A stretch of DNA of 64,000 bases from Clostridiales bacterium. GTDB taxonomy: Bacteria > Bacillota > Clostridia > Caldicoprobacterales > UBA3941. This document shows positions 14,507-33,750 of this stretch, one piece after another. The notes under the pieces were generated by a model. The model did not search any database and had not been told where the DNA came from. It saw only the letters and a list, made by a program, of their open reading frames with translations. Positions within the stretch are counted from its first letter, which is position 1. Each line of letters opens with the position of its first letter. The DNA is taken from the NCBI GenBank assembly GCA_012735575.1, contig JAAYGY010000054.1, forward strand, positions 3,109 through 67,108, read 5' to 3'. The position numbers and the translations under genes are program-made.

Positions 14507-14533
14507 GCCATATCACCCCGAAAGAAATTTAGG

Positions 14534-17211: not shown

Positions 17212-18739
17212 ACTCCATCTCTAGTTTTTTAACCTTTCTCTTGTAGGATATGGTAGTAGATAATATCATTATTACTCCTGTAGCTAAAGCTATGGACACC
17301 CACCATTGGGAGGCTCTTTCAGGTTTTTGTTTATCTTCTTCCTGTTCTTCCCTAATATCACCAATAATAGGTTTTTCTATATTTGTTGCCAACTCTACTG
17401 TTTTTGTGTATACTTCTCCATACTCATCCTCATAAGTAATAGTCATAATCCCTTCAGATCTTCCATATTTACCTGCATCATCACCTGATACTTCGGCCTT
17501 TGAATATTCATCTTTTCCCATATCTAACGTCCCAAAGAAGGCATAAATTTCTGTACTATTTGATGTACCAGGCTCCATGTTTCCAAGGTAGGCACTGCCA
17601 TCAGGAATTACTCCCGGCATCTCAAGGGTACATCGTACATTATATAGAGTACTTTTTCCCATATTAAAAATATTCATGGTAATTGGCAGACTTTCTCCTG
17701 CATTAACACTAGATGGAATATTGACTTCATCTACCTCCAGTCTAAGAGGCTGTCTTACCTCCACCAATATCTCCTCGTTCATGGTATAGGCAGTGCGTGC
17801 ACTATCTTCATATTCTATGGTTAGTAGGATTTTATGGGGGCGGGGCTCTGCATCTAATCGAGTTCTCATCTTTAAGTTAAGCTCATGAGTCTTATTATTT
17901 GATATCTCATCTATATAAAATGTATTAGTCTTGTCATTAGGAAGAATATCATGAGTCTCGCCTTTATATGTTACCTTTATATTGTATGTGCTCCAGTCTT
18001 CCTCTGTATTTTTAAGCCTTACCATTACATCAAAACTATCCCCCGCCATGACCATCTGAGGACTAACCTTATATTCATCCATGATAATTTTAGGCTGGGG
18101 TCTTGGCTCAGGTTCTTCTTCAGGCTCCTGTTCAGATTCAGATGATTGGGGATCTCTTCCATCAGTAATAGTCACATACACAGTAAAAGTCTGCTCTACC
18201 TGTTCTATAATATCCTTAACTTGTTCCTGTTCCTTTGGACTAGATTCATCAGTTATTTCCTCTGGATCTTTGGATTGCTCCGTAACATTTGGTTTTTCTT
18301 TTCCCTCTGATTGGACTAAGAAACTAGTATTTATTATTACAGGATAAGTTCCATTTATCCGGTTTGCTGATAAGGGCAGTTCAAGACGAACCAGAAAACT
18401 TGGTACTTTGGCCTTCCCACCATTTACAACATTATCAGCTAAAGAAACGGTCATCTGATAGTTGGAAAAGGAAAAAGGTGAATCCAAGGGGTCCCCCAGG
18501 TCAGGTGTAACAGTTATCTTCTCATCAACTATTTTATTGGCTCCTTCATATATTAAGGGTAGTATAACTATTGCTTTTCCATCCTTGACATCAGGTCTGT
18601 AACCCTGTGAATATGAATTTATCATGCCCTCATATACATTCTTGTTATCGATTGCCAGTTTATCTCCTGCAGCGTATGTAACTGGAATATAGGCTGTCAG
18701 AATAATAACAGTTAATATAATAGTAGCCACTTTTTTCAT
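17192..18739 (-). CDS. Secreted, C-terminally membrane-anchored beta-rich protein with acidic linkers (unknown function; CARDB/COG1361-like by appearance)
   Basis: Signal peptide MKKVATIILTVIILTAYIPVTYAAG. Repeated Ig-like-looking modules are separated by E/Q/P-rich linkers (SESEQEPEEEPEPRPQP). C-terminal TM WWVSIALATGVIMILSTTI followed by KRKVKK. It is sandwiched between the ATPase and the FtsX permease, overlapping both. Confidence 0.7.
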   Translation of the reverse strand: MKKVATIILTVIILTAYIPVTYAAGDKLAIDNKNVYEGMINSYSQGYRPDVKDGKAIVILPLIYEGANKIVDEKITVTPDLGDPLDSPFSFSNYQMTVSLADNVVNGGKAKVPSFLVRLELPLSANRINGTYPVIINTSFLVQSEGKEKPNVTEQSKDPEEITDESSPKEQEQVKDIIEQVEQTFTVYVTITDGRDPQSSESEQEPEEEPEPRPQPKIIMDEYKVSPQMVMAGDSFDVMVRLKNTEEDWSTYNIKVTYKGETHDILPNDKTNTFYIDEISNNKTHELNLKMRTRLDAEPRPHKILLTIEYEDSARTAYTMNEEILVEVRQPLRLEVDEVNIPSSVNAGESLPITMNIFNMGKSTLYNVRCTLEMPGVIPDGSAYLGNMEPGTSNSTEIYAFFGTLDMGKDEYSKAEVSGDDAGKYGRSEGIMTITYEDEYGEVYTKTVELATNIEKPIIGDIREEQEEDKQKPERASQWWVSIALATGVIMILSTTISYKRKVKKLEMEYGNEDI

Positions 18740-19443
18740 AATCCTTTTTCCTCCCTGTCTACTATTCGTCCATCTTCAATACAAATAATGCGATCTGCCT
18801 TTGCTGCCTTTTCCATATCATGGGTTACCATTAGAATTGTAGTTCCATTTTTTATCGATATATCCCTTAATATATCCGTTATCTGATCTGCATTTTTTGA
18901 ATCAAGGTTTCCCGTAGGTTCATCCGCAAAAAGTATATCAGGATTACCTATTATAGCACGTGCGATAGAAACTCTTTGCTGCTGCCCTCCTGATAATTCC
19001 CTGGGTTTGTGATGCAAATGCTTTTCAAGGCCGAATAAGGTTAGGAGCTGCTTTGCTCTTTCCATCCTTTCCTGTCTTCCTACGCCCTGTGCCATTAAGG
19101 GTAAAGCTACATTTTCTTGTGCTGTCAGCATGTCAAAAAGATTAAAGGATTGAAATACAAAACCAATATGCTTAAGCCTGAAACCAACCAGCTGTTTTTC
19201 ACTCATCCTATGAATACTCCTACCCTTTATAATAATACGCCCGGTACTGGGAGGCTCAAGACCTGCTAGAAGTGAAAGCAAAGTAGACTTTCCGCTGCCT
19301 GATGTGCCAACTATGGCAACAAACTCACCAGGCATAATATCTAAATCCACTGATGTCAACGCCTTTAGTGGGATTTTTCTAGTCCTGTATATTTTGGTTA
19401 AGTTCCGTACGACTATTATGGGTTCTAATTTTTTGCTATCCAC
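18736..19443 (-). CDS. MacB/LolD-type ABC transporter ATP-binding protein
   Basis: Walker A GTSGSGKST, signature LSGGQQQRVSIARA and Walker B ILFADEPTGNLD. The GTG start overlaps the upstream stop (TAGTG). Confidence 0.9.
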   Translation of the reverse strand: MDSKKLEPIIVVRNLTKIYRTRKIPLKALTSVDLDIMPGEFVAIVGTSGSGKSTLLSLLAGLEPPSTGRIIIKGRSIHRMSEKQLVGFRLKHIGFVFQSFNLFDMLTAQENVALPLMAQGVGRQERMERAKQLLTLFGLEKHLHHKPRELSGGQQQRVSIARAIIGNPDILFADEPTGNLDSKNADQITDILRDISIKNGTTILMVTHDMEKAAKADRIICIEDGRIVDREEKGL

Positions 19444-20099
19444 TATCTCACCACCGTCAATCTTCCTCTGTCCATCTCACAAACGCTATCGCATAGCTCT
19501 TCAATATCAGCCGGGTTATGGCTTGCAAGCAATATGGTTTTACCCTGATCTTTAAGCTCTTTTATAAGCTGTCGCATCTGGAACACTCCATGTTTATCCA
19601 GACCATTAAAAGGCTCATCCAAAATTAATATTCTAGGATCTTCCATTATTGCCTGAGCAATGCCTAAACGCTGGCGCATGCCTAGAGAATATTTGGCTAC
19701 AGGCTTTTTCATATGGGGATCAAGTCCCACCCGTCGTATAGCATCAGTAATTTCCTTACTGGTTATTTTCCGCTTAAGAGAGGCCAGAATTTGAAGATTC
19801 TTCATACCTGTGGCATAGGGCAAAAAACCAGGGGTTTCAATGATTATTCCCATATCTTCAGGAAAATCCACATCCTTGCCCACCTGCTGATAATCTACCA
19901 GTATCCTTCCCTTTGTAGGACGGAGAAAGCCACATATGCATTTGAATAGCACCGTCTTTCCACTGCCATTGTTACCCACTATGCCATGGATTTTTCCCTC
20001 TTCAAAATTATGATTGACATCATGTAATACTTCCTCATCTCCAAAGGATTTATATACATGCTGCAGACTAATGGCTATATCTCTCTTATTTTTATCCAT
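19443..20099 (-). CDS. ABC-2-type ABC transporter ATP-binding protein
   Basis: Walker A GNNGSGKTV, signature YSLGMRQRLGIAQA and Walker B ILILDEPFNGLD. The start overlaps the upstream stop (TAATG). Confidence 0.9.
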   Translation of the reverse strand: MDKNKRDIAISLQHVYKSFGDEEVLHDVNHNFEEGKIHGIVGNNGSGKTVLFKCICGFLRPTKGRILVDYQQVGKDVDFPEDMGIIIETPGFLPYATGMKNLQILASLKRKITSKEITDAIRRVGLDPHMKKPVAKYSLGMRQRLGIAQAIMEDPRILILDEPFNGLDKHGVFQMRQLIKELKDQGKTILLASHNPADIEELCDSVCEMDRGRLTVVR

Positions 20100-20995
20100 T
20101 AGTTTAGTCCCCCTGAAAAGTTAAAATTGTATTTTCTTATGGACAATAAGGCTAATAAAAGACACATGGATATTAATACAACATATATAAAATAAGTTTG
20201 CCATAATTTAGGTAATAGATCATAACCAAAATTATGCATATGATATGTTGCATGCTGAAGGGGTGACGCCCATCCCGTGACTACATTGGCTATATATAAT
20301 TGATCTTGGCTAAGTTTTAGTATCTCCTTAAACAACTGGGGATTTAATAGAAAACCATATAAGTTAAAAATAAAAACGCTTAATATCCCCCAAAAATGGC
20401 CTTTTCTTAGATTCATGACAAACATTATAAGCACACATAATAGAGTATATAATAGCATCAATAAAAAAATGGTAACCATACATTCATATGGGGTGGACAT
20501 CTCCATAGTCTTTACGGAACTAGGAAGAGCTACAACCTGTCCGGCTCCTGAATAACCTAGTATAGCAGCCGTTTCTGACCACATATTACCCACATAGGCA
20601 TTTTTAGCACATATTACAATGGTTGATACTAATATAAAAACCATGTATATAAAAACTGCTAGACATATATAAAGAATCTGTCCCATCAGCCATTTTAATC
20701 TACTGGTACGCATAAGAAAATAAGGGACTCCGGCATCCAGGAATGGCATATCAGAGAATAGGAGAATAAGTAACAATGAAGCTAGAAGTATGGAGTTGCT
20801 GTCACCGAATGTCCATACAAAGGGTTCTATAACCTGTATAATGGTATTATATTCGTAGCTAAACCGGATAGCATTATCCGTCAAAAGAAAGCATAATACA
20901 AAGGCTAGACCAAAGGTGATTATTATACGAGGATTTTTTCTCCATCTTCGAAAGTTGTACCAGCATATCTCCCAAATCTGATATAGTCCCAGCAT
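20099..20995 (-). CDS. Polytopic membrane protein, putative ABC-2 permease subunit
   Basis: 298 aa with ~6-7 hydrophobic segments. It is translationally coupled on both sides (TAATG overlaps). I recognise no motif. Confidence 0.65.
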   Translation of the reverse strand: MLGLYQIWEICWYNFRRWRKNPRIIITFGLAFVLCFLLTDNAIRFSYEYNTIIQVIEPFVWTFGDSNSILLASLLLILLFSDMPFLDAGVPYFLMRTSRLKWLMGQILYICLAVFIYMVFILVSTIVICAKNAYVGNMWSETAAILGYSGAGQVVALPSSVKTMEMSTPYECMVTIFLLMLLYTLLCVLIMFVMNLRKGHFWGILSVFIFNLYGFLLNPQLFKEILKLSQDQLYIANVVTGWASPLQHATYHMHNFGYDLLPKLWQTYFIYVVLISMCLLLALLSIRKYNFNFSGGLN

Positions 20996-21744
20996 TAGCC
21001 ATCAATCCTTCCCTCTATTATGACATCGTTTATCAGCATTACTATTATGTTAAGTAGAATAAGCAGCAGTATAATCCCCCAATCTCCACCAATCCAAAAT
21101 TCCTTAGGTGCTAACCATTCCTTGGGATTGATAACATATATACCGTGGAAATAGCGTTCTGACAGGAAAACCAGCACATAATAAATAACAAAAGGAGCCG
21201 CATAAGCCATATATTTGCTCAAAGTTACATTGGCAAGGAGAGAGCCTAGGGAAGCCCATAAAGACCCGCACAAAAAATACACTAGGGTTTTCCTTACTAG
21301 AACATTTAAGGGAGATATAGCCGTGGGATCAGCAACTTCCAAGGGACTGTACACCAGATATGCAATAAAGTATGATAGCAATACGCCTGTTGCCAGGGAT
21401 AGGCCTCCCGATATACCAGCACCAAGAACTTTACCCTTTATATAAGCCCTTTTGTCACACTTTATAAGATAAGGCATTATAAACCCGCTACTGTATTCTT
21501 CCAGGAAGGCCACTGTATAGGGCAATGTACAAAGGATGGGAACAACCATAAGGACAATGTCTGATGACAGGGCCTTAAATATTAGCTGACCATGATAATA
21601 GGAGCTTAAACCAATATCAATATCCCCGGGAAAAATCAGCTCTCTCCCTGCACCTATAGCTATTACTATAACCATAGCAGTACAAGTTAAAAAAAAGGGT
21701 AAGTTATATATGGCTCTTTTTAAATCCACTTTTATTTCATTCAC
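20995..21744 (-). CDS. Polytopic membrane protein, putative ABC-2 permease subunit
   Basis: 249 aa with ~6 hydrophobic segments. It is the first gene after the BlaR1-like gene, with a 100-nt gap in which I see no obvious terminator. Confidence 0.65.
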   Translation of the reverse strand: MNEIKVDLKRAIYNLPFFLTCTAMVIVIAIGAGRELIFPGDIDIGLSSYYHGQLIFKALSSDIVLMVVPILCTLPYTVAFLEEYSSGFIMPYLIKCDKRAYIKGKVLGAGISGGLSLATGVLLSYFIAYLVYSPLEVADPTAISPLNVLVRKTLVYFLCGSLWASLGSLLANVTLSKYMAYAAPFVIYYVLVFLSERYFHGIYVINPKEWLAPKEFWIGGDWGIILLLILLNIIVMLINDVIIEGRIDG

Positions 21745-21844
21745 TATACTTTTAGTCCTTTCACGTCCATATAAGTTTCCCTATAATCTCGCCTATATCT
21801 CGCCAGTTCAACAAGCTAGTTCTATTAAGTATCAAATCTTTTCA

Positions 21845-24505
21845 TTAATACCCCTTAGATATATCAATAATGCTGCCGTCAATGGCGTTAATAACCACAT
21901 AAGGGTATAGACTATCTGGAGCGGTCACCTGTGAATTACCATCATTATCTTTATAATTAAGATTTTCATAGCCTAAAAAAGTCCATGCAGGCACCATACG
22001 GTAAGCTCCAGGCCGATCCTTGATTCGTATACGCATCAGCCCAAGACATATATCGGTAATATTTATCTCCCCTGAGTCTATATCATCAGAGCTACCGAGC
22101 AATTTGCTTATTGTATATTCCATCTTTACCTGCTTTTTGAATATTTCTATCGCCTCTTCTAAAGTAATTACAGGTACATTGCTGTTTTCCACCTGTACTT
22201 GTTCCATGGGAGAATCCCAGTACAGACTAGTTATTACATCATTTTGCACAGTTACCCTCAGTTGTTCATAGGGGTAAGTATGCGCATACTGATCACTGGC
22301 GCTACTATCTAAACTGCTAAATGGAGCTACATCATGGGCTGCAATTCCTTCATATGAAGGAACAAAAGTCATTCTATACCCATAGACTTCATCTTCATTT
22401 TTATCAATGAAATTTTTATCTAGATTCCCTTCTATATCTACAACTTCATTAATTCCATCTTCTTTTAGTATATCTGATGATGCACTACTAAAATCAGATA
22501 TCATCATACCTGGTAAGGGCTTACCTAAAGTATAACAGTCTGATAGCACCATATTGGTTATACCCATTTGAGCTAGAGTGTCCTGAACCATATCAATGGT
22601 CTCCTCTAGGGTCAATTTTGCAGGTCTGGAATCAAGAGAATCCCAGGTAGGTATACTTCCCTCATTGCCTATAAAACTGGATCCCATAGAAAAATGAGCA
22701 TAGTGGTAGATGTTTTTTGTGGTATCCTGATTAAATACGGTAATCCTTGCATTATAATCAAGCACTTTTGAATCAAGAATTATCATATCTGAATCATAAT
22801 AGTATTTTTGTAACTCCCTTGACTCTTCATCATCCTCATTAAATTCATTTCCCAATATGGCCATATTTTCATAATATGCTCTAGGTCTAAATGTCCAATC
22901 GGTTTCTTTTACCTCAATTGTATTTGGAGCATCCTGATATATATTTTCAAATTCTTCAATGCGCTTTTCAAATTCTGCCTTAACCATCTCAGCGATAGCC
23001 TGGTCTCCACCATAGTATTCCAGTATAGCCTGCTCGTTGCTAATAAACTGCTTGTGCTTTATAATCTCCTCCTCTAGATCTGCCTTACTAAAGCCTACTT
23101 TAGGTTCATAGGCAATGCTGCCTTGAAACAATACTTCTGCCATAGCTTTAACCTGATCCATGTCAATATAGCGAGGCTTAACCTCTACTACAGGCATATT
23201 ACCGGTGGGTAGTGTAACCTCTGCATTAATATTAATAGTTACTCTTTCATCTGCACCTTGGAAAGATTCACTATACTCTGAAAAATCAACCTGCCTGTTT
23301 TGATTAGCGTTGCTTCCCTCAGAATCTGCTTTTGATTGAATAATTTTCTCCAACTTGCCATCGCTCTTGCCTATGACAACAGGTCCTTCCGGTGTAGGCT
23401 GACAGGCTGTGGTAAAGCATACAATACCTATTATCCCTACTAGTAAAAGGGATATGGTCTTTACTGACATTCTGGTTTTATTGGGCTTAAACAAACCCCT
23501 AATTCGTTTTTCCGCCGCAATACGCCCTTTGCCAGCTCCCATAGCTAATCCGCTAAATGCAAAGGGATTATTAGTATTAAATAGACTAATTAAAGTTTGA
23601 GCATAGGCTCTTCGACTTTCAACACCAATTTTTTCAATTACCTCTGCATCGCAAGCTGTTTCCATATCATCAATTATCAAAGAGTTTGCAATGTGAACAA
23701 TAGGGTTAAACCAATATACAACTTTTAATATGGTTAGCAAAAATCTGACAAGATGATCTCTTCGTTTGTAGTGGCTTAACTCATGTAAAAAAATAAATTC
23801 CAGTTCCTTGTCAGTACGGTCTTTTATTAGTCTTGTTGGCAGCAGTATAAGAGGACGAAACCAAGCCGTAAGTGCAGGAGTCTTTATTATATCCTGAAAT
23901 ACCAGGGGGATATCCTTTTTTATTCCAAGCCTTTCTTTGCATTGGGATAATATGTTATAAGCCCTACTATCCCAAAGGCCTTCACTTTTCTTTCTAATAG
24001 AGTAAATACCTCCATAACCCCTTATTACACGACTTAAAGCGACTAATACTCCCAACACCCATATCCTAAGTAGAATAGTCTTTACATTTATCTTAATAAT
24101 TTTTTCTCTTGGTTTAGAGTCAAAATTCCTCTCATTATTTCCCAATTCCTTCACATCAAGCCTGGTTTCTTTTATGGGATAACTTAATTTTGTCTTGTTT
24201 AAATCTGTAAATATACCATTATCATAGGCACTAGCCCTTGTACCATTAGATATATGGTCTTTAGATTCAATATGTTCTACTGTTTTGTTAAATGCTTCAT
24301 GAGATAGAGGGAGAATATTAAAAAATGAATACCCTATTTTAATGTTTACTGGTATCAACAGGCGTATAATCAGCAGAAACCATATAGCATACTGAAATCT
24401 GGCAGACATTCGTGAACCTAAAGCTCTTTTGATTAGAAGAATCACTGCAAAAACCAAACTAGCTGATATATTTGCCCAAATTAGATCTACTATAAAAGTA
24501 TTCAT
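21845..24505 (-). CDS. BlaR1/MecR1-like M56 sensor metalloprotease with an unrecognised ~515-aa extracellular C-terminal domain (paralog A)
   Basis: N-terminal TM helices. The zinc motif FLHELSHYKRRDH (HExxH, aa 241-245) is followed by WFNP, as in peptidase M56. A TM helix at aa 347-366 ends in FTTAC. Then comes a large hydrophilic domain ending ...GAYRMVPAWTFLG...VINAIDGSIIDISKGY. The gene overlaps blaI-like A by 4 nt. Confidence 0.85.
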   Translation of the reverse strand: MNTFIVDLIWANISASLVFAVILLIKRALGSRMSARFQYAIWFLLIIRLLIPVNIKIGYSFFNILPLSHEAFNKTVEHIESKDHISNGTRASAYDNGIFTDLNKTKLSYPIKETRLDVKELGNNERNFDSKPREKIIKINVKTILLRIWVLGVLVALSRVIRGYGGIYSIRKKSEGLWDSRAYNILSQCKERLGIKKDIPLVFQDIIKTPALTAWFRPLILLPTRLIKDRTDKELEFIFLHELSHYKRRDHLVRFLLTILKVVYWFNPIVHIANSLIIDDMETACDAEVIEKIGVESRRAYAQTLISLFNTNNPFAFSGLAMGAGKGRIAAEKRIRGLFKPNKTRMSVKTISLLLVGIIGIVCFTTACQPTPEGPVVIGKSDGKLEKIIQSKADSEGSNANQNRQVDFSEYSESFQGADERVTININAEVTLPTGNMPVVEVKPRYIDMDQVKAMAEVLFQGSIAYEPKVGFSKADLEEEIIKHKQFISNEQAILEYYGGDQAIAEMVKAEFEKRIEEFENIYQDAPNTIEVKETDWTFRPRAYYENMAILGNEFNEDDEESRELQKYYYDSDMIILDSKVLDYNARITVFNQDTTKNIYHYAHFSMGSSFIGNEGSIPTWDSLDSRPAKLTLEETIDMVQDTLAQMGITNMVLSDCYTLGKPLPGMMISDFSSASSDILKEDGINEVVDIEGNLDKNFIDKNEDEVYGYRMTFVPSYEGIAAHDVAPFSSLDSSASDQYAHTYPYEQLRVTVQNDVITSLYWDSPMEQVQVENSNVPVITLEEAIEIFKKQVKMEYTISKLLGSSDDIDSGEINITDICLGLMRIRIKDRPGAYRMVPAWTFLGYENLNYKDNDGNSQVTAPDSLYPYVVINAIDGSIIDISKGY

Positions 24506-24882
24506 TTTTCATTCTCCTTATCAGCAAGCTCATCAAAGAGTTCTTTTAGTTCCTGCATATCTTCTGAGGATAAGCTGCTTTCCTTAATCATGCATACTAA
24601 TAGATCTTTTAAGCCTGATCCGGATATTCGATCTAGTATGCTTTCACTTTCTGCACGTATGCATTTATTTCGATCAATAGCTGGATAATAGAATTTATCC
24701 CGGCCCAGCATTTCATAACGGGCAACGCCCTTATCACATAGTCGTTTTAAGTAAGTAGAATAGGTAGTATATTTCCAGTCCAGCTGATCTCCAACGGCCT
24801 CTATAACACCTGACAAGGTAAGGGGAGATTTCTCCCATAGAGTATTCATCAATATCCACTCAGGCTTTGTTAAGGTTATCAT
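24502..24882 (-). CDS. BlaI/MecI/CopY-family winged-helix repressor (paralog A)
   Basis: 126 aa. LTKPEWILMNTLWEKSPLTLSGVIEAV...WKYTTYSTYLKRLCDKGVARYEMLGRDKFYYP is typical of the Penicillinase_R family. GAAGGAGGAAG RBS. Confidence 0.85.
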   Translation of the reverse strand: MITLTKPEWILMNTLWEKSPLTLSGVIEAVGDQLDWKYTTYSTYLKRLCDKGVARYEMLGRDKFYYPAIDRNKCIRAESESILDRISGSGLKDLLVCMIKESSLSSEDMQELKELFDELADKENEK

Positions 24883-24907
24883 TGTCTTCCTCCTTCTTGA
24901 TTAAAGA

Positions 24908-24944
24908 GTTGTAAAAGCTATGACTTAGTCATAGCTTTTACAAC
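24908..24944. promoter_or_regulatory. Perfect 17-bp-arm palindrome upstream of blaI-like A (candidate operator and/or inter-module terminator)
   Basis: GTTGTAAAAGCTATGAC-TTA-GTCATAGCTTTTACAAC, 25 nt upstream of the blaI-A start and 62 nt downstream of the blaR-B stop. It contains outward TGTAA/TTACA elements. A TTGACA -35-like hexamer on the minus strand lies at 24997-24992. Confidence 0.55.
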
Positions 24945-25005
24945 TGACTATTAAGTCTTGTTACTTATGTTGTAGTATCTGCCCTCAACCTTGTCAAGCA
25001 CTTTT

Positions 25006-27657
25006 TTAGTAACCTTTATTTCCATCTATAATACTTCCATCTATAGCATTAATTATGGCATAAGTATTGATAGACTTATCTCCCCCAGGACCTGGTACTG
25101 GTGATAGATAACCTTTGTTCAATATGTCCAGATTCTCACCGACCAGCTTTTCAGTTCCTTCAAATATCCATACTGGTACCATACGATAAGCACCAGGTCG
25201 GTCCTTGATAAGCAAACGCATCAGACATAGGCGTATATTTGTTATATTGATTTCACCTGATTGGATGTTCTTAATGACTTCATTGTAATCATTATGCTTG
25301 GGGTCATACCGGGACAGCTTACCAATGTTATACTCTAGCTGCATCTGTTTTTTGAATATGGCTACCGCTTCTTCAAGATCAATGACGTCTACATTATCAC
25401 TTTCAACATCCACAATCTCCATAGGTGAACTCCAGCTAAAGTAGGTAATCATGTGGTTATTGACATTCACATTCAGGCTTTCATGAGGATAGATATGGAT
25501 AAACTGATCATCATGGCTGCCTAGAGTAAATCTTTCCATATTATAAATAGCAACTCCTCCATATGTGGGAACAAAGGTTAAGGAATAGGTGTATACATCC
25601 TCCCCTTCGGCAGGTTCTGGTATATTTGGCCTCTTTCCTCCTCCGGCAGCCATGCTAAGAGCTGCTTTGGAATTTTCAGGAATAGGTGTGTAATAATCCT
25701 TGTAATGACCGTAAGCTCTAATGCTATCCAATCTCATGTTCCTTATTCCCATCTCTATAAGGGCATTTTCTACCATATCAATGACCTGGTCTTTTGTCAT
25801 CTTCATGGGGCGTGAATCAGCAGGGTCCCAGGTTGCAAAATTTACATCATGCATTCTAGATCCCATATCAAAGGCTACTCCATGAGAATGGTAGTTACCT
25901 TTTTCATGATTATAGGCCTGTATCATAGCATGATAATCGTCAATCCTAGTTACGGCAATAAAGGTTTCTGCATCATATAACTGCTCAGCTGTAATATCCT
26001 CTTCTGGGCGTACACTGGCATCAGCCTCCACCTTATCCATATAATATAACTGTGGATGAAAATTCCAATCTGTTTCTTTAAGAGTCACTTTCTCAGGCGC
26101 GATAGAATACATTTCCTCATACCTTGCAATACGTTGCTGGTAATCAGCTTTTATTTCCTCCACAGCCTCATTATTCCCCCCATATCCTTCCAGTAAGGCT
26201 GCCTCATTGCTCATTTCTTTTTTAAGCTTTATAATCTTATCTTCCAACTGGGATTTGGTCATAGCTATTTGAGGTTCATAGGCAACATTTCCACGAAACA
26301 ATACCTTAGTAATATCTTTAATCTGATCCATAGGTATGTTGTATGGTTTAACCTCAACTACCGGTACATCTCCTTCAGGCACAATTACTTCTGCATCTAT
26401 GTTAACAGTAACCTTCTTATCTGCGCCAGCAAAAGAGTCTGTATACCTTTCTACCAAAGAAGTCTTGTCTTTTCTTTCTTTACCTTCTTTACTGGATCTT
26501 ATTGCTTCCTCCAGTTTACTGCCGTCCTTGCCGATAACTATAGGACTGTCGGGAGTTTTCTGACAAGCGGTAGTAAACCCCATAACTAACATCAAAGTTG
26601 CTAGAAATATGGATATACAAGTCAAAGTTTTGGAATTTTTTTCGAGCTTTACGATCCGTACAATCCTCTTCTTCAGTCTGGACTTATTCCTATACAGGGA
26701 GGTAGTAATAGATGGAATGGGTATGCTTGTATTTTTTGAAATGCGAACAGCCTCTATCAGTGACTGGCCGTATATTAATGGATCACATTTACTTAGATGT
26801 TTTACCACCATTTGATCACAGTAAAGTTCAACATCTTCCTGATACAGGCTATATGCTATCCATACCAATGGATTAAACCAGTGAATAGCCTTTGCCAGTA
26901 ACCAGATATAGTTAATAAGTATATCGTGCCTCTTTATATGATAAACCTCGTGAAATAGAATACTGTTTAAAATGTCCCTGTTCATGTTTTCAATAAAAGA
27001 TGCTGGTAAAAGAATGTTTGGTTTAAAATATCCAAATACAACAGGTGTCTTTACAAAATCACACTCTATTAGTGGAATATACTTTTTTATTCCAACACTT
27101 GCCATATGGTCTTCTTTCATCTGTATTATATTTTTATGGGTAATTGGTTTACAAAACCTAAGCCTGCGCCTAAACGATATTGCTTTCCTTATAGTAGCTA
27201 ATAAAATAGATATGGTACCTGTAATCCATATAAATGAAACAATCATCCATAGGGAAAAATTGTCTTTTTTTGCTCCTTGATTGACTTCTTTCAATAAAGG
27301 TTTCCCTTCATGTGAAGAAGGCAAAAGGTTTTTATGGTTATCAGTTTGACTGACCTGTCTATAAACCGATATATTCCTATTAATCATATTGGTAGAATCT
27401 AAATATAATTCATTAGTATTAGCCAGATCAGTTGCTGACGGTTCCAAAGTAGATGTCCCAGGTAATAATTCATATATTTGTACAGGGCTATATACGGTGA
27501 AAGGCAGACATAGGCGCAATAATACCATTCCCCAAAGAATTAGCATAATTGCTGGGCTAATTCTCTTTGCCATGCTCCTTCTAATTATTATGGCTACAAC
27601 TATCATCAAAGATGCCATAAGGGAAATATGAAATAATACTTTTAATAGGGCAGGCAT
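25006..27657 (-). CDS. BlaR1/MecR1-like M56 sensor metalloprotease with the same unrecognised extracellular domain (paralog B)
   Basis: Zinc motif LFHEVYHIKRHD (HExxH, aa 236-240) followed by WFNP. A TM helix at aa 343-363 ends in FTTAC. The C-terminal domain is colinear with paralog A, for example VTVNIDAEVIVPEGDVPVVEVKP, LKETDWNFHP and GEINITNIRLCLMRLLIKDRPGAYRMVPVW. Confidence 0.85.
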   Translation of the reverse strand: MPALLKVLFHISLMASLMIVVAIIIRRSMAKRISPAIMLILWGMVLLRLCLPFTVYSPVQIYELLPGTSTLEPSATDLANTNELYLDSTNMINRNISVYRQVSQTDNHKNLLPSSHEGKPLLKEVNQGAKKDNFSLWMIVSFIWITGTISILLATIRKAISFRRRLRFCKPITHKNIIQMKEDHMASVGIKKYIPLIECDFVKTPVVFGYFKPNILLPASFIENMNRDILNSILFHEVYHIKRHDILINYIWLLAKAIHWFNPLVWIAYSLYQEDVELYCDQMVVKHLSKCDPLIYGQSLIEAVRISKNTSIPIPSITTSLYRNKSRLKKRIVRIVKLEKNSKTLTCISIFLATLMLVMGFTTACQKTPDSPIVIGKDGSKLEEAIRSSKEGKERKDKTSLVERYTDSFAGADKKVTVNIDAEVIVPEGDVPVVEVKPYNIPMDQIKDITKVLFRGNVAYEPQIAMTKSQLEDKIIKLKKEMSNEAALLEGYGGNNEAVEEIKADYQQRIARYEEMYSIAPEKVTLKETDWNFHPQLYYMDKVEADASVRPEEDITAEQLYDAETFIAVTRIDDYHAMIQAYNHEKGNYHSHGVAFDMGSRMHDVNFATWDPADSRPMKMTKDQVIDMVENALIEMGIRNMRLDSIRAYGHYKDYYTPIPENSKAALSMAAGGGKRPNIPEPAEGEDVYTYSLTFVPTYGGVAIYNMERFTLGSHDDQFIHIYPHESLNVNVNNHMITYFSWSSPMEIVDVESDNVDVIDLEEAVAIFKKQMQLEYNIGKLSRYDPKHNDYNEVIKNIQSGEINITNIRLCLMRLLIKDRPGAYRMVPVWIFEGTEKLVGENLDILNKGYLSPVPGPGGDKSINTYAIINAIDGSIIDGNKGY

Positions 27658-27658
27658 T

Positions 27659-28045
27659 TTACTCGCCCCCCTTACCTTTCAAATCCTGAATCAGCCTTTC
27701 CAGTTCATCAAGGTCGTCATCAGTAATTTTTTCGGCTTCTACAAATCTAGCAATCATATGAGGTAAATTTCCGTAATACTTGCTAATTACACTGTTGGCC
27801 TTATCAGCAGCATATTCTTCCCTTGAAACAATAGGGTAGTAACTGTATGATCTCCTGTTTCCTTCTTTGACTCCTACCAGGCCTTTTTCCATAAGCCTAT
27901 TTAGGTATGTATTTACGGTTTGACGTGACCAGTTAAGTATATCCTTAACTTCCTTTTGAATTTTCATGCTGGTGGATACACCATCCCGCCATAGGATTTC
28001 CATGATAATGCTATCTGCCTCAGTTAAATCAGGATATTTACTCAT
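27659..28045 (-). CDS. BlaI/MecI/CopY-family winged-helix repressor (paralog B)
   Basis: 128 aa. LTEADSIIMEILWRDGVSTSMKIQKEV...WSRQTVNTYLNRLMEKGLVGVKEGNRRSYSYYP. The stop lies 1 nt before the blaR-B start. GGGGGG RBS. Confidence 0.85.
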   Translation of the reverse strand: MSKYPDLTEADSIIMEILWRDGVSTSMKIQKEVKDILNWSRQTVNTYLNRLMEKGLVGVKEGNRRSYSYYPIVSREEYAADKANSVISKYYGNLPHMIARFVEAEKITDDDLDELERLIQDLKGKGGE

Positions 28046-28068
28046 ATTAGTTGGCCCCCCTAAAAAAC

Positions 28069-28125
28069 TTTCGACGTAACACTTACGTCTATAATAAGAC
28101 TACAATATTACGTCGAAAATGTCAA
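28069..28125 (-). promoter_or_regulatory. Candidate promoter/operator region of the blaI-B/blaR-B pair
   Basis: Dyad GACGTAA-CAC-TTACGTC at 28073-28089. A third copy, TTACGTCGAAA (28108-28118), is the inverted repeat of TTTCGACGTAA (28069-28079). On the minus strand there is TTGACA (28125-28120), a 17-nt spacer containing the distal half-site, then a weak -10 TAGTCT. Confidence 0.5.
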
Positions 28126-28129
28126 GGGG

Positions 28130-29128
28130 TTATTTCTTTGGAAATAAGGATTTTCTCACAATCACCATGGTTTCCATATTAACGTTTTGCACCTTATCCC
28201 CTTTTATCTTTTTTAAAAGGAGTTCCATAACTTTTTTACCTAATTCATAATGGGGTACATGGACAGTGGTTAAAGGGGGTGTCAGATAACGGCTAAGATT
28301 TAGATTGTCAAATCCCACTACTGAAACATCATAAGGTATTTTCAGCATTAGATCATTGATAGCAGAATAAACAGCAGGGGCTAGGTAGTCATTGCCAGTA
28401 AAGATGGCAGTCGGCCGTTTATAGCGGGTTAGCATTTCTATGACGCTTGAATAGGCATAATCCGGAGTATCACCATCTATGTAGACAATATCCGGGTCAA
28501 ATTCAATACCATGATCTGATAATACCTTACGGTAGGCTTGTAATCTATAGTCTGGTTCCTTTGAAGACCTTAATCTTCTTGCAGTCAAAAAACCTATTCT
28601 TCGGTGACCGCTATTAACAACATATTCCAATAGCTTGACTGCTCCTGCATAAAGGTCCAGGTTCACCAATATAATTTCAGGATCAAACCCCTTATATCCT
28701 TCATTACCAACAAACACTGTTGGTATTCTATACCTTGTAAACCTATTAACATCCTCTATTGCTAGCTTATCTGTAGACATAACAATACCATCGAACTGAC
28801 GCTTGATAAGTTCATCAATATACTCTTTATCCTCCCGGGCATTTAAAATGGAGATAATGTAACCATTTTTAAAGGCCTCTTCCTCCATCCCTAAAGCCAG
28901 TTCTGCAAAATATGGGTTGGAAATACCGTTGGTAACCAGGGCTATCTGATTAGTTTCACGGGTCTTTAGACTTCTTGCCACTAAATTAGGTTTATACCCT
29001 AATTCATCGATAGCCTTCCAAACCAATTCTCTAACTTCCTTACTAACCCCTGGCTTGTTATTAATAACATTTGATACTGTTGCTACTGAAACATGTGCCC
29101 TTTTAGCCACGTCTTCTCTAGTTACCAT
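28130..29128 (-). CDS. LacI-family transcriptional regulator
   Basis: The N-terminal HTH is VTREDVAKRAHVSVATVSNVINNKPGVSKEVRELVWKAIDELGYKPNLVARSL. It is followed by a periplasmic-binding-protein-like effector domain. Confidence 0.9.
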   Translation of the reverse strand: MVTREDVAKRAHVSVATVSNVINNKPGVSKEVRELVWKAIDELGYKPNLVARSLKTRETNQIALVTNGISNPYFAELALGMEEEAFKNGYIISILNAREDKEYIDELIKRQFDGIVMSTDKLAIEDVNRFTRYRIPTVFVGNEGYKGFDPEIILVNLDLYAGAVKLLEYVVNSGHRRIGFLTARRLRSSKEPDYRLQAYRKVLSDHGIEFDPDIVYIDGDTPDYAYSSVIEMLTRYKRPTAIFTGNDYLAPAVYSAINDLMLKIPYDVSVVGFDNLNLSRYLTPPLTTVHVPHYELGKKVMELLLKKIKGDKVQNVNMETMVIVRKSLFPKK

Positions 29129-29221
29129 ATGCCCTCCTGTACTTTAAATATTTCCAATTAATTATATATCACAAGTTTTTGTCTTTCAAGGAATGCCTGA
29201 TAGATATAATCCGGCAAATAG

Positions 29222-29250
29222 AAATAAAAAAATCCGAGCTAAACTCGGAT
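29222..29250 (-). terminator. Rho-independent terminator ending the feo-linked operon
   Basis: On the minus strand: ATCCGAG-TTTAG-CTCGGAT followed by TTTTTTTATTT. It begins 3 nt after the stop at 29253. Confidence 0.7.
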
Positions 29251-29252
29251 AA

Positions 29253-29834
29253 TTATAAATGTTTCAAATAAGTCTTTTTAACTTTAAAACTACTTATCAT
29301 TAGAAGGGATAACAAAACTATAATAAAGGTATTCTCTAAATTTATGGTGCTTTGACTTACTAATTTCAATCTATACACCGTATCCAGTAAATGTTTTCCT
29401 CCCATGACCATCCCTGCTACAGTTATGGGGAGGCCTATTATATATCTTTCATCCGTTGAAATATTGTACCTTGCCAGCCTAAATATACCTCCACCTATAA
29501 ACAATAATGATACTGTAATTTCCCTTATTCCCAATAACCCGTTATTTATGTTCCACCACAATACAATGGGAGCCATTCCAAAGGATACCAGATCACTTAA
29601 AGAATCAAGTTCCCTACCGAATTTGCTAGTAATCCTCAGCTTTCTAGCCACATAACCATCCAGTTTGTCAGTAATCCCCGCTATTACAACTAATAAAGCA
29701 GCAATTTTAATATTAACAGGGGTATTGTTTGTACTTATAAAAATAGCTATTGCCCCTAAGGACATATTTACGTAGGTGATTGCACTGGGTAGTATATGCA
29801 GTTTTGACAATCTATCACATTCTAACCTCAACAT
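29253..29834 (-). CDS. CDP-alcohol phosphatidyltransferase, phosphatidylserine-synthase-like (PssA-like)
   Basis: Exact CDP-alcohol motif DKLDGYVARKLRITSKFGRELDSLSDLVSFGMAP (D-x2-DG-x2-AR-x8-G-x3-D-x3-D). The GRELDS..DLVSFG.AP context resembles Bacillus-type PssA rather than PgsA. I chose the start at 29834 (AAGGTGA RBS), which overlaps the upstream gene by 20 nt. Confidence 0.8.
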   Translation of the reverse strand: MLRLECDRLSKLHILPSAITYVNMSLGAIAIFISTNNTPVNIKIAALLVVIAGITDKLDGYVARKLRITSKFGRELDSLSDLVSFGMAPIVLWWNINNGLLGIREITVSLLFIGGGIFRLARYNISTDERYIIGLPITVAGMVMGGKHLLDTVYRLKLVSQSTINLENTFIIVLLSLLMISSFKVKKTYLKHL

Positions 29835-30834
29835 TATTATCACCTTTCCTGTCTCTTGCTAAAGCAAAGACATTATCCAGCATCAAAATAAAACCGCTTA
29901 TTACAAATTCAAACCAGAAAGTTACAAATCTAAAAATAAAAGCTACAGTTAACCCCATCTCCATAGATATTCCCCTAATAATTAGGAGAATCAACATGGA
30001 ACCTTCAAAACTACCTACACTACCCGGAAGCATAGGGACCATTCCCATTATATAAGTAAGAAAGGTTATAGCCCCTATGGATATATAGTCCATCTTTATA
30101 GCTAGCCCCCTCAAAACCAACAACAGCTTAAAAGCATAAAAAATCCAAATAAAAAGGGCAAGAAACATTTGAAAAGAGAATTTCCTCTTATCCCTTAAAA
30201 AATCTCTTATTATGCTACTGTAGTCTATAAGGGTTTTATCTATTTTGTCCATCAATCTGGTTTTACCTAAAAACTTTCTAAGTAGCTTATTAACCAAAGC
30301 GGGTTTAAAGGAAAACAAGATTATAATTCCTAAAAAAACAACAAACATAACTAAAACCAGAGAAAAGACATATAAATAATGCCTATATTTTATACTCATT
30401 GTAAAGCTAAACCAAATTAGGCTTAGCAGAGTCAAAAAAATAAAGCTAAGAAGACTTAGAGTTTTCTGTAGACCGATAATAATTATGGCTTTTCCAAAAT
30501 CTATCCTTAACCTTTTTTTCAGTTCATAGACCCTTGCCAACTCTCCACCGGCCTTTACCCCCGGGGTAATAGCATCTACCACGTTTCCTTTTGCATTCAT
30601 CATGAGCATGTCCAAAAAAGACACATTTTGTTTAACCCGTAGAGCCATCGACCTCCATTGCAGGGCTAAAAGAAGCTTTGTAATGCATTGCGCCAGCAGC
30701 AATAAGGCTATTGTTTTGGGGGATAGGGACCTGATATGGTCAGCTACCTCTTTCCAATCGGTTTTTATTATAATAAGTACTACTGCTATAGCACCCAGGG
30801 CATAAAGGAAACCCTTAAAATGTTTTTCTTTCAT
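29815..30834 (-). CDS. Flippase-like polytopic membrane protein (UPF0104 / lysyl-PG-synthase TM-region-like)
   Basis: ~8 TM segments. The N-terminus KGFLYALGAIAVVLIIIKTDWKEVADHIRSLSPKTIALLLLAQCITKLLLALQWR has the layout I associate with the MprF flippase-domain family. I chose the start at ATG 30834 (AGGTGA RBS); the GTG at 30843 is an alternative. Confidence 0.65.
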   Translation of the reverse strand: MKEKHFKGFLYALGAIAVVLIIIKTDWKEVADHIRSLSPKTIALLLLAQCITKLLLALQWRSMALRVKQNVSFLDMLMMNAKGNVVDAITPGVKAGGELARVYELKKRLRIDFGKAIIIIGLQKTLSLLSFIFLTLLSLIWFSFTMSIKYRHYLYVFSLVLVMFVVFLGIIILFSFKPALVNKLLRKFLGKTRLMDKIDKTLIDYSSIIRDFLRDKRKFSFQMFLALFIWIFYAFKLLLVLRGLAIKMDYISIGAITFLTYIMGMVPMLPGSVGSFEGSMLILLIIRGISMEMGLTVAFIFRFVTFWFEFVISGFILMLDNVFALARDRKGDNNVEVRM

Positions 30835-30844
30835 ATTAGTCACC

Positions 30845-31411
30845 TTAGATTTTTACCATAAGCAGAATTTCATCCATAGTTTTACCCCTGCTTTCTAATG
30901 AAAAACTACTAATTTCTATAGCTTTATCACTTATAAAGTCATCGCTTATGTTAGAATAAAGAGGTTTTAATATCTTTCTTGGCACCCTCACTATTATTCT
31001 ATTTCCTTCCCTTGACTTCTCCCATATATTTTCCAGTACCTCTTCTTTTGGACTTACCTGCTGGGCTATATGAATTACATCGTAAGGTTCTATGTCTATA
31101 TCCTGTCCTCTTGCATTAAATACAGTTATTTTTTCCTGTAAATTCAGTCTGGATACCACATTCCTGGCGGATTTTACAGCTTTGCTATCTATATCCACCA
31201 CATGAACCTGAGCCTTTGTTTGTTTCGCGATCTCTATAGCCGTTGAGGGAATAGATCCTCCCCCAATACATAATACCCTATCCCAGTTTCTTATATTGGC
31301 CAGGGCTATTTCATTTTTAACTATGCCCCTGTAGTAGAGGCAGTACAGTTCTACTAAGACATCATATTTTGAACAAATTTTTTCTATCCATTTTGTGCAT
31401 GTTCTTATCAT
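30845..31411 (-). CDS. Small Rossmann-fold SAM-binding protein, nicotianamine-synthase-like by motif pattern
   Basis: VLCIGGGSIPSTAIEIA (compare the NAS G-S-G-P-L-P-L-T loop), VHVVDIDSKAV, ITVFNARGQD, YDVIHIAQQV and RIIVRVPRKILKPLYSNISDD (compare the NAS ...R....G.R..LYP.V ending). 188 aa. It starts 6 nt after the feoB stop. Confidence 0.55.
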   Translation of the reverse strand: MIRTCTKWIEKICSKYDVLVELYCLYYRGIVKNEIALANIRNWDRVLCIGGGSIPSTAIEIAKQTKAQVHVVDIDSKAVKSARNVVSRLNLQEKITVFNARGQDIDIEPYDVIHIAQQVSPKEEVLENIWEKSREGNRIIVRVPRKILKPLYSNISDDFISDKAIEISSFSLESRGKTMDEILLMVKI

Positions 31412-31417
31412 TGTATC

Positions 31418-33178: not shown

Positions 33179-33396
33179 TTTTGTACAACCTCCTCAACCA
33201 GAATCTCATTTGCAATATCATAATCAATGGCTATGCTTCTATTACCAACCTTGACTACTATAGGCCCCTTAAAAGGTTGTTTACTTTGAATTGTAAACTG
33301 TGTCCCCTTTCTGAAACCCAGAACTTTTAATAAATGTGAACTAGGTAATGCTTGAATTCTATAGGTGGATAATTTTTCTCCATGTGCTAAAGGCAT
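33175..33396 (-). CDS. feoA: FeoA family protein
   Basis: 73-aa SH3-like protein. RIQALPSSHLLKVLGFRKGTQFTIQSKQPFKGPIVVKVGNRSIAIDYDIANEILV. GAGGAGGA RBS. Confidence 0.85.
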   Translation of the reverse strand: MPLAHGEKLSTYRIQALPSSHLLKVLGFRKGTQFTIQSKQPFKGPIVVKVGNRSIAIDYDIANEILVEEVVQN

Positions 33397-33423
33397 TATG
33401 ATCCTCCTCTTGTATAATCAATA

Positions 33424-33440
33424 TTGATAATCATTATCAA
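33424..33440. promoter_or_regulatory. Fur box upstream of feoA
   Basis: TTGATAATCATTATCAA is a perfect palindrome that contains the 7-1-7 Fur consensus TGATAAT-N-ATTATCA exactly. It lies 28 nt upstream of the feoA ATG. The -10 candidates TATACT and TATTAT abut it on the minus strand. Confidence 0.75.
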
Positions 33441-33650
33441 CTATAATATAGTATAGCATAGATTTTTATATTTCTCCATAGCTTTGTGAAAATTTTATTT
33501 AAAATACACAATTTAACCTGTTCCGCCAGTTCGGCCTTTAAATCTTTATTCATATAATGGCTGTTGACAAGTGATCGCCTTCGCTGATTTGGCTTTAGAA
33601 AACTTGGCTTATGGAATGCAAAAAAACCGTAGCCTAGGCAGGATACCAAA

Positions 33651-33680: not shown

Positions 33681-33750
33681 CTTACTCAATCCCTAATCAC
33701 ACTTATTGCATTTTTGTTCACTATTTTTATAATTACAAGTATATCAAGTA

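Follow-up and report, generated by a model that had tools for sequence, protein, structure and literature searches.

Two tandem repressor/membrane-protease gene pairs with a DUF6034 ectodomain, candidate regulators of an adjacent exporter operon in a Clostridiales genome

This study concerns two tandem regulatory gene pairs in a Clostridiales bacterium (GenBank assembly GCA_012735575.1, contig JAAYGY010000054.1, positions 3,109 to 67,108). The whole 64,000-nucleotide (nt) stretch analyzed is called the window. Each pair consists of a repressor gene (R1 or R2) followed by a gene for a membrane protease (S1 or S2), and the second pair precedes a six-gene ATP-binding cassette (ABC) operon. A preliminary description of this DNA had proposed that the pairs are duplicated signaling modules of BlaI/BlaR1 logic, in which a ligand-activated protease destroys its cognate repressor. 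The sequences make it moderately probable, in our judgment, that each pair is a BlaI/BlaR1-type one-step proteolytic unit and that R2-S2 derepresses the six-gene exporter operon. The sensor, an M56 protease fused to a DUF6034 domain, probably switches the exporter on in response to an envelope signal.

An open reading frame (ORF) check of the window found four minus-strand ORFs, R1, S1, R2, and S2 (Table 1), bearing out the two co-oriented pairs of the preliminary description. The repressors of ~127 amino acids (aa), said to abut or overlap proteins of ~885 aa, proved to be 128 aa for R1, which ends 1 nt from the 883-aa S1, and 126 aa for R2, which overlaps the 886-aa S2 by 4 nt. Both pairs are real; the label A had been attached to the second-listed one (24502..24882 with 21845..24505). 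Over their whole length S1 and S2 are 36% identical (E 9e-174), with 31% identity in the M56 part, 46% in the ectodomains (519 aa each), and 59% in the last 110 aa, so that the earlier estimate by eye of about half identity within conserved blocks was a fair one. R1 and R2 are 28% identical.

Searches with the Penicillinase_R and Peptidase_M56 models, suggested in the preliminary description, placed all four proteins above cutoff. R1 and R2 scored 102.1 and 91.1 bits against Pfam PF03965 (Penicillinase_R; cutoff 22.6). R1 aligned to residues 6–120 of the 123 in MecI (1SD6/1OKR), including the C-terminal helix that contains the BlaR1/MecR1 cleavage site. Because R1 and R2 fell below the NCBIfam equivalog cutoffs for BlaI, MecI, and CopY, they are members of the family and not orthologs of a characterized repressor. 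CopY-type copper sensing was rejected: the CopY model TIGR02698 gave 65–68 bits against a cutoff of 122, and the Cys-rich CopY tail (CxCx4CxC) is absent from the C-terminus of both proteins.

Against Peptidase_M56 (PF05569; cutoff 31), S1 scored 171.7 bits (E 3e-50) and S2 187.5 bits (E 4e-55). S2 aligned to residues 6–307 of the Staphylococcus aureus BlaR1 chain solved by cryo-electron microscopy (8EXP/8EXS), and the four hydrophobic segments of S1 and S2 are spaced as in BlaR1. The zinc site, described earlier as intact, contains HExxH (HEVYH at aa 236 in S1, HELSH at aa 241 in S2) and WFNP, and the third ligand motif, ExxxD, is kept as well (ELYCD at aa 277 in S1, ETACD at aa 282 in S2). 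HExxH and ExxxD align to HEYAH and EVEAD of BlaR1.

Membership in the M56 and Penicillinase_R families, together with a partial match to the NCBIfam model blaR1_generic, could mean that S1 and S2 are ordinary β-lactam sensor-inducers of the BlaR1/MecR1 kind whose penicillin-binding domain has diverged beyond recognition. That match, however, stayed below the cutoff (164 bits, with 400 required) and covered only model positions 101–323 of 585, in the N-terminal half. Pfam and NCBIfam profile scans of S1 and S2 found no penicillin-binding protein (PBP) or transpeptidase family. The PBP motifs reported as missing are so for K[ST]G, which occurs nowhere in either protein; SxxK is absent from the S1 ectodomain, but there is one in the S2 ectodomain, at aa 381 in the N-terminal tether. 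The ectodomain is predicted to consist of α/β repeats, no PBP or class D β-lactamase-like structure was among the top 50 Protein Data Bank (PDB) matches to its model, and no β-lactamase or PBP gene was present among the flanking genes scanned (about 7.2–31.4 kb of the window). With no PBP domain or motif and a different fold, β-lactam sensing was rejected, and we give it almost no weight. As judged from their sequences, S1 and S2 fall outside the BlaR1/MecR1 orthologous group, whose defining sensor feature they fail.

The extracellular domain of ~515 aa that had been called unrecognized is Pfam PF19499 (DUF6034). The match extended over aa 354–883 of S1 (178.9 bits, E 2e-52) and aa 355–886 of S2 (180.3 bits, E 9e-53) and spanned profile positions 8–481 of 481 (cutoff 27). 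NCBI names a protein identical to S1 "DUF6034 family protein [Caldicoprobacterales bacterium]". The domain starts, in every homolog aligned, right after the last transmembrane helix, at the Cys of (T/L)(T/S)(A/G)C-QPTP. Among 78 nonredundant loci, a lipobox-like [LT][TSA][AG]C-QPT motif was found at the junction in 47 of 48 M56 fusions, and in 144 of 163 stand-alone DUF6034 proteins it followed a hydrophobic stretch inside the first 90 residues; the junction Cys was 98% conserved in 200 DUF6034 members. One stand-alone protein (P0014) opens with a plain lipoprotein signal peptide, MRKLQISIWIILCCAVLLTAC, followed by QATP. The S1 and S2 junction, FTTAC, follows K/R-rich and hydrophobic stretches and fits the broader PROSITE-style lipobox pattern, with T rather than L at −3 and with the signal in an internal position. 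Because the lipobox-like Cys is conserved in fusions and stand-alone proteins alike, the fusion resembles an M56 protease with a lipoprotein attached, the signal peptide serving as the last transmembrane helix.

The S2 ectodomain was modeled with AlphaFold2 from a 34-sequence alignment, and the model was confident (predicted local distance difference test, pLDDT, 83; predicted template modeling score, pTM, 0.83). It consists, in order, of a low-confidence N-terminal tether (residues 1–40), a β-sheet and helix, a long helical hairpin, a β-sheet, and two units of a helix plus three to four strands, the latter two parted by a disordered, indel-rich loop (residues 302–336); these sub-domain boundaries were taken from secondary structure and pLDDT alone. 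Folds were compared by Foldseek against the PDB and BFVD. The best PDB match was 5COZ (E 1.2e-9, template modeling (TM) score 0.59 on the target) and the next was YycI (E about 1e-3, probability 1.0); there was no other credible match in the top 50, and BFVD, a viral structure library, gave none. 5COZ is EUBREC_2869, an uncharacterized 347-aa structural-genomics protein of Eubacterium rectale that is only 11% identical to the ectodomain. It has no assigned function, so the match adds no mechanism, and nothing relevant to it was found in the literature searched. No sequence relatives of DUF6034 were found among solved structures, 5COZ included. In keeping with the preliminary description, neither the Pfam search nor the AlphaFold2 and Foldseek comparison gave a confident match to a characterized sensor family. 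In the 200 DUF6034 members the best-conserved positions form an N-terminal CQPTP..V..K and the C-terminal motifs P.W.F.G and NA.DGS..D...GY, and the most variable part is the center (residues 180–260 and 300–340).

A search with the ectodomain profile through 1.84 billion representatives returned 4152 clusters (50% identity) at E ≤1e-3 and 2951 at ≤1e-10. Most of these proteins are 440–560 aa long, with the domain starting near residue 20 (stand-alone form); about one-fourth of the top 150 are 775–913 aa long, with the domain starting near residue 350–420 (M56 fusion). Precomputed Pfam annotations contain the same two architectures. With one genome per Genome Taxonomy Database (GTDB) species, at least 511 DUF6034-encoding stretches were found. 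The hosts are mainly Christensenellaceae, Oscillospiraceae, Lachnospiraceae, and unclassified Bacillota metagenome-assembled genomes (MAGs), and also include Ktedonobacter and Clostridium paridis. The DUF6034 family runs to thousands of proteins, carried by Clostridia of the gut and of anaerobic digesters. The earlier reading of the domain purely as a sensor overlooks the stand-alone lipoproteins, encoded beside the same exporter, that make up most of the family.

Genomic context was determined for 89 loci, annotated with hidden Markov models (HMMs) made from the window proteins. The loci were the best matches to the ectodomain profile and are biased to close relatives, so percentages are indicative only. 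In other genomes, 46 of the 48 M56-DUF6034 genes have a BlaI gene immediately upstream. Tandem BlaI/M56-DUF6034 pairs number two in the window and in L011, L018, and L020, three in L019 and L031, four in L030, and five in L008/L032. At L008 (1639..16631), and likewise at L032, L030, L019, and L031, the three to five pairs are arranged head to tail, some of them after stand-alone DUF6034 genes. Such arrays may be a repertoire of orthogonal receptors. Stand-alone DUF6034 genes also form tandem arrays, with up to nine copies per fetched locus (L029, L047, L065, L068, L089). Arrays of six to nine copies, found at these five loci and at L038, L066, and L072, belong to Christensenellaceae, Oscillospiraceae, and other Clostridia MAGs and often end directly at the operon that begins with memA and memB. 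The survey of the M56-fused domain that the preliminary description had called for shows that fusions are widespread and that their neighbors are nearly always BlaI genes and often the six-gene exporter operon. MecI-like repressors, an intact zinc site, and an upstream BlaI gene at nearly every fusion are all consistent with the BlaI/BlaR1 logic first proposed.

The C-terminal end of the domain had reminded the preliminary description of PepSY modules. If DUF6034 were a string of PepSY units, it might inhibit or chaperone a secreted or cortex-lytic enzyme, as in the M4 propeptide and YpeB-SleB, and be processed by the M56 protease, with no part in transcriptional signaling. Pfam PepSY (PF03413) does match weakly on the helix before the last β-sheet, the secondary structure has units of a helix plus three to four strands, and many of the host taxa belong to the Clostridia, some of which form spores. 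The match, however, was seen in only 2 of 34 members and was always below threshold (14.8–17.1 bits against a cutoff of 24; E 0.007–0.04) over 17 residues only, and no PepSY or YpeB structure occurred in the top 50 PDB fold matches; PepSY membership is not supported at the sequence level. Nor was there a conserved link to lytic enzymes in the surveyed loci, the sole case being one Amidase_3 gene in L008. Since nearly all M56-DUF6034 genes have a BlaI partner, which argues for transcriptional signaling, we consider the PepSY explanation very unlikely. In the same 34 members, the YycH/YycI profiles (PF09648/PF07435) gave a single match, to YycI (E 0.11).

The operon downstream of S2 begins 100 nt after that gene and encodes, in order, memA (~250 aa), memB (~300 aa), two ABC ATPases, a CARDB-like protein, and an FtsX/MacB permease. 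The six-gene ABC operon of the preliminary description is real, but it holds two ABC systems and not one: on the strength of profile matches and a structural model, it is a predicted type V exporter (memA, memB, and the first ATPase) plus a MacB-type module with the CARDB-like protein. The models closest to the first ATPase (19443..20099) are lantibiotic-protection (TIGR03740), DrrA, and PmtC. MemA and MemB matched nothing in Pfam or NCBIfam, even at permissive thresholds, and no PDB sequence; a comparison of the two with hhalign gave no signal of paralogy (probability 0.6%). MemB has 1807 homologs, all the named ones being "hypothetical" and none having a Pfam domain. Among the top 120, identity to the window protein is 63% or more. 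The mean column identity is 65–68%, and invariant polar residues are numerous, the motif SPLNHATYHMHNFGYDLLP among them. The AlphaFold2 model of MemB (pLDDT 77, pTM 0.79) matched NosY, PmtD, and ABCG-family transporters (Foldseek probability 1.0, TM-score 0.5–0.73). MemB is therefore assigned as a type V (ABC-2) permease at the fold level only, with no sequence-family match. The PADLOC catalogue of anti-phage defense systems gave only generic ATPase and helix-turn-helix noise.

Linkage between DUF6034 and this operon is frequent. Both kinds of array, BlaI/M56-DUF6034 and stand-alone, are typically immediately upstream of the six-gene operon, which lies downstream of DUF6034 genes in L007, L011, L014, L018, L021, L023, L025, L035, L039, L052–L055, L060, L069, L073, L084, and L089. 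Where at least 3 kb past the last DUF6034 gene was available, memA/memB was present in 25 of 48 loci, and the memA start was less than 200 nt away in 22 of 26 cases; memA, the constant neighbor of memB, adjoins it in 30+ DUF6034 loci. This conserved synteny supports the earlier suggestion that the ABC operon is the likely output of the pair next to it. Stand-alone DUF6034 genes also occur ~3–4 kb from a divergent memA-memB-ATPase cluster in L043 and L044 (Ktedonobacter racemifer and a Ktedonobacteria bacterium), L045, and L059; because DUF6034 is thus near memA-memB in Chloroflexota, outside Bacillota, the association has been kept across phyla. In two Oscillospiraceae loci, L052 (16390..) and L073 (7982..), an ORF of 107–135 aa between the CARDB-like and FtsX genes matched the BlaI HMM; it is either a gene or an overlapping-frame artifact.

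The same synteny can be read in another way. DUF6034 might bind no free ligand and instead dock on the ABC exporter or its CARDB-like accessory and report the working state of the transporter, the stand-alone lipoproteins then being structural or regulatory exporter subunits. YycH/YycI, which modulate WalK, and BceB, which informs BceS, are precedents. The ectodomain fold resembles YycI, the conserved tether (CQPTP..V..K) and C-terminal β-motifs (P.W.F.G, NA.DGS) could form a docking surface, synteny is tight with a very highly conserved MemB, and in L014, L060, and L084 a DUF6034 gene lies within the operon. Up to nine diverged paralogs beside one exporter are, however, easier to explain by many ligands; the DUF6034 center is highly variable, and about half of the loci have no exporter nearby. 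We regard a purely transporter-coupled sensor as rather unlikely. The many diverged paralogs and the variable center favor a free ligand, and the YycI-like fold and conserved termini favor reporting of the exporter state.

Candidate regulatory sequences were found in front of both repressor genes. Upstream of R1, TTGACA (28120..28125) is followed by a degenerate dyad (28098..28114) and by the perfect dyad GACGTAA-N3-TTACGTC (28073..28089). Between the S1 stop and the R2 start, TTGACA (24992..24997), with TACAAC as the −10 hexamer at a spacing of 17, is followed by a 39-nt perfect palindrome (24907..24945) and a strong ribosome-binding site. With 19-bp arms around a single central base, the palindrome greatly exceeds the usual length of a BlaI operator; it may serve as an operator, as an RNA hairpin that stabilizes or attenuates the transcript, or as both. 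No further copies of the R1 or R2 dyads were found in the window, for example before memA. In relatives, canonical BlaI/MecI/CopY-type dyads (like GTCTACAnnTGTAGAC) lie ~50 nt upstream of BlaI start codons; dyads of the TACAnnTGTA type were found in L011, L012, L031 (where the sequence is GTCTACAATTGTAGAC), L061, and L080. Such dyads before BlaI genes support repressor autoregulation as a trait of the family. The spacer between S2 and memA contains no terminator-like element, which is compatible with co-transcription.

The two pairs are not a recent duplication. The nearest relative of S1 in the sample is an L016 protein from another MAG (50% identity), and that of S2 is an L007 protein (41%), likewise from a copy adjacent to the exporter operon. 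Because each paralog is closer to a protein of another organism than to its neighbor, both lineages have long been retained. Pairs 1 and 2 are old lineages, each retained on its own, that differ in their repressors and in their candidate operators, and they probably represent two inputs rather than recent redundancy. Decay of one or both pairs into duplicates with no current function could be argued from S2 at L002 (10654..13314; a JGI metagenome contig of the same species), where the gene is split into parts of 247 and 631 aa. Either a frameshift or a misassembly, this split accounts for the 631-aa database entry P0001. Against decay, S1 and S2 are undamaged both in the window and in five further contigs of the species, both keep their catalytic motifs, and both lineages are long retained; we hold decay to be highly improbable. 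Assembly GCA_049655845.1 and several metagenomes also contain this locus.

Taken together, these observations suggest the following mechanism. Its domain content, catalytic motifs, fold class, family size, and synteny are shown by the analysis; the membrane topology, repressor cleavage, use of the operators, joint transcription, and kind of cue are inferred, and the steps of protease activation and derepression follow the BlaR1 paradigm (8EXP–8EXT). R1 and R2 would each act as a dimeric winged-helix repressor on a palindrome before its own operon. S1 and S2 would be four-helix M56 membrane proteases with the catalytic loop facing the cytoplasm, and the 519-aa DUF6034 domain would be held on the outer face of the membrane, after a transmembrane helix that is itself a lipoprotein-type signal sequence. 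A change at DUF6034, either ligand binding or contact with a loaded or stalled exporter, would be relayed through this helix to activate the M56 protease, which would then remove the cognate repressor. In pair 2, R2-S2 and the six genes that follow, with no terminator between them, would be derepressed together. Pair 1, an older paralog with a different operator, would most likely autoregulate and add a second input specificity. Because DUF6034 mostly occurs as a free lipoprotein whose gene lies next to this exporter operon or within it, we take it to be the exporter's extracellular partner, often in many diversified copies, of which the M56 fusion would be the sensor edition.

Several points weigh against this mechanism. 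The scissile pair of MecI, N101-F102 (N-F in BlaI and MecI), is R-F in the R1 alignment and C-M in R2, the latter by a reading by eye only. The canonical TACAnnTGTA operator does not occur in the window, and the R1 and R2 dyads differ from it; the 39-nt palindrome is downstream of the putative −10 hexamer and so is possibly an RNA hairpin and not an operator. The likeness to YycI is modest (TM-score 0.40–0.44). About half of the DUF6034 loci with enough flanking sequence have no memA/memB nearby, and L012 pairs the M56-DUF6034 module with a GH3 glycosidase, so that the ABC link is frequent but not obligatory; moreover, these proportions come from loci picked as best profile matches. DUF6034 is named in Pfam and NCBI, yet no mention of it was found in the literature searched, and it is therefore a catalogued but functionally blank family. 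That the cue is a membrane-active peptide or other exported envelope compound is a guess, made by analogy with LanI/LanFEG, PmtCD, and Bce systems and with weak support from the window neighborhood, where a Bce-like module (9937..14506) and a gene for an MprF-type transmembrane protein (29815..30843) occur.

A broader proposal, which we consider unlikely, is that the DUF6034 arrays are variable, lipid-anchored recognition subunits of a widespread Clostridial envelope system that includes MemA/MemB and the MacB module, and that the M56-fused members are its orthogonal receptors. Such a system, so far undescribed, would combine diversified lipoprotein arrays, a novel and very highly conserved type V exporter, and a MacB-type module with the CARDB-like protein. 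Its M56-fused pairs, as many as five in succession, would each have a separate repressor and operator. Lgt and Lsp would lipidate the ectodomain at the internal lipobox and cut it from the protease, giving a split BlaR1 with a free lipoprotein sensor. Internal lipobox processing is not known to have been described for a polytopic signaling protease.

BlaR1 and MecR1 are the textbook case of one-step proteolytic transmembrane signaling, and to our knowledge only the penicillin-sensing form has been studied mechanistically. In the literature searched, the only other variant of BlaIR described was that of the sensor-less "atypical" systems. The M56-DUF6034 architecture is common in databases and already named; its connection with a specific, novel exporter operon, its derivation from a lipoprotein whose lipobox is conserved in an internal position, and the tandem receptor arrays appear to be undescribed so far. 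With its sensor, repressor, operator, and exporter, the locus is a well-defined unit open to experiment. Through it one could look for a new class of signal perceived by M56 receptors and for the functions of two large families, one of them the core permease family MemB, with ~1800 near-invariant members and no family assignment. The tandem diverged pairs are also a natural set of possibly orthogonal membrane-to-DNA switches.

The features of the window are collected in Table 1. On the far side of the exporter operon, beyond a major facilitator superfamily (MFS) gene, lies a Bce-like peptide-antibiotic module on the minus strand (9937..14506). Upstream of R1, also on the minus strand (28130..31411), are genes for a LacI-family regulator, a CDP-alcohol phosphatidyltransferase, an LPG_synthase_TM protein, and a small NAS/methyltransferase-like protein, which together may serve to modify membrane lipids. 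As judged from L001, FeoAB lies further upstream. Nearly all genes in the window are on the minus strand and the GC skew is consistently negative; no tRNA genes and no Rfam families (gathering threshold) were found in positions 1..64000.

Table 1 Features of the two gene pairs, the exporter operon, and neighboring genes (window coordinates)
Feature	Coordinates	Strand	Basis or remark
Candidate R1-S1 promoter and operators	28073..28125	minus	Sequence reading, pattern search; putative operator role
R1, BlaI/MecI-family winged-helix repressor, 128 aa	27659..28045	minus	Pfam Penicillinase_R, 102.1 bits; MecI alignment
S1, M56 zinc protease + DUF6034 ectodomain, 883 aa	25006..27657	minus	Pfam matches
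S1, M56 part	aa 8–333		
S1, last transmembrane helix with lipobox-like TTAC	aa 342–365		
S1, DUF6034 ectodomain	aa 365–883; DNA 25009..26565	minus	
Candidate R2 promoter and palindrome	24907..24997	minus	Sequence reading; putative function
R2, BlaI/MecI-family repressor, 126 aa	24502..24882	minus	Pfam Penicillinase_R, 91.1 bits
S2, M56 zinc protease + DUF6034 ectodomain, 886 aa	21845..24505	minus	Pfam matches
S2, M56 part	aa 9–315		
S2, last transmembrane helix with lipobox-like TTAC	aa 344–368		
S2, DUF6034 ectodomain	aa 368–886; DNA 21848..23404	minus	
Exporter operon	15913..21744		
memA, 249-aa polytopic membrane protein, putative partner permease of MemB	20995..21744	minus	No Pfam/NCBIfam match
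memB, 298-aa membrane protein, predicted type V (ABC-2) permease fold	20099..20995	minus	AlphaFold2 + Foldseek
ABC ATPase, ABC-2 type	19443..20099	minus	TIGR03740 E 3e-52, below its cutoff; PmtC 4e-39
ABC ATPase, MacB/LolD/DevA type	18736..19443	minus	Profile match
515-aa secreted, C-terminally anchored protein, CARDB-like β-sandwich; accessory of MacB-type module	17192..18739	minus	
MacB-type permease (MacB_PCD + FtsX)	15913..17211	minus	Pfam
MFS gene between exporter operon and Bce-like module	14534..15841		
OmpR-type response regulator	13832..14506	minus	
Histidine kinase, 342 aa	12807..13835	minus	Only HATPase_c detected
ABC ATPase of Bce-like module	11904..12662	minus	
FtsX-type permease of Bce-like module, 656 aa	9937..11907	minus	
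LPG_synthase_TM (MprF-type) transmembrane protein	29815..30843	minus	

Comparison with known systems places the window pairs closest in plan to BlaI/BlaR1 and MecI/MecR1 of S. aureus and Bacillus licheniformis (8EXP–8EXT, 1SD6/1OKR). Shared features are the gene pair of repressor and membrane protease; the M56 fold with HExxH and ExxxD and four transmembrane segments followed by an extracellular C-terminal domain; the winged helix with a C-terminal dimerization helix in the repressor; and, presumably, an outside signal that leads to repressor cleavage inside. The differences are as follows: a 519-aa lipoprotein-type DUF6034 module replaces the ~260-aa class D β-lactamase-like domain of BlaR1; the last transmembrane helix of S1 and S2 ends in a conserved lipobox-like Cys; R1 and R2 have not kept the scissile N-F; the candidate operators in the window are not of the TACAnnTGTA form; the regulated genes would be ABC exporters and not β-lactamase or PBP2a; and M56-DUF6034 pairs occur in tandem arrays of two to five.

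Sensor-less, atypical BlaI/BlaR systems have been described in Mycobacterium tuberculosis (Rv1845c/Rv1846c), M. abscessus, and Pseudomonas aeruginosa (PvmSR) (bioRxiv 10.64898/2026.08.03.742534). Like these, the window pairs combine an M56 protein and a BlaI-family regulator that do not sense β-lactams through a PBP-like domain. The atypical systems have no extracellular sensor domain, however, whereas S1 and S2 have a large, conserved ectodomain that is predicted to be well folded.

YycI, an extracytoplasmic accessory regulator of the membrane sensor WalK (PMC7355866), is the only functionally characterized fold match of DUF6034. Like YycH/YycI (PDB 2O3O), DUF6034 would be an extracytoplasmic, membrane-tethered α/β domain that modulates a membrane signaling enzyme. 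In contrast to this resemblance, there is no significant sequence similarity to YycI, and the structural match covers about half of the domain. YycI, moreover, has an N-terminal transmembrane anchor and acts on a histidine kinase, whereas DUF6034 is fused to a protease.

The exporter operon resembles type V ABC exporters, some of which have lipoprotein partners, as in LanI with LanFEG, NosL with NosDFY, and PmtABCD. In the window, as in such systems, type V exporter genes lie next to genes for proteins of the membrane-anchored lipoprotein type. The first ATPase of the window operon is like those of the lantibiotic-protection and PmtC models, and the predicted MemB fold is like that of NosY and PmtD. 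DUF6034, however, is similar to LanI and NosL in neither sequence nor fold, and MemA and MemB fall into none of the permease families described so far. A further difference is that a second module, of MacB type and with a CARDB-like protein, always accompanies the exporter.

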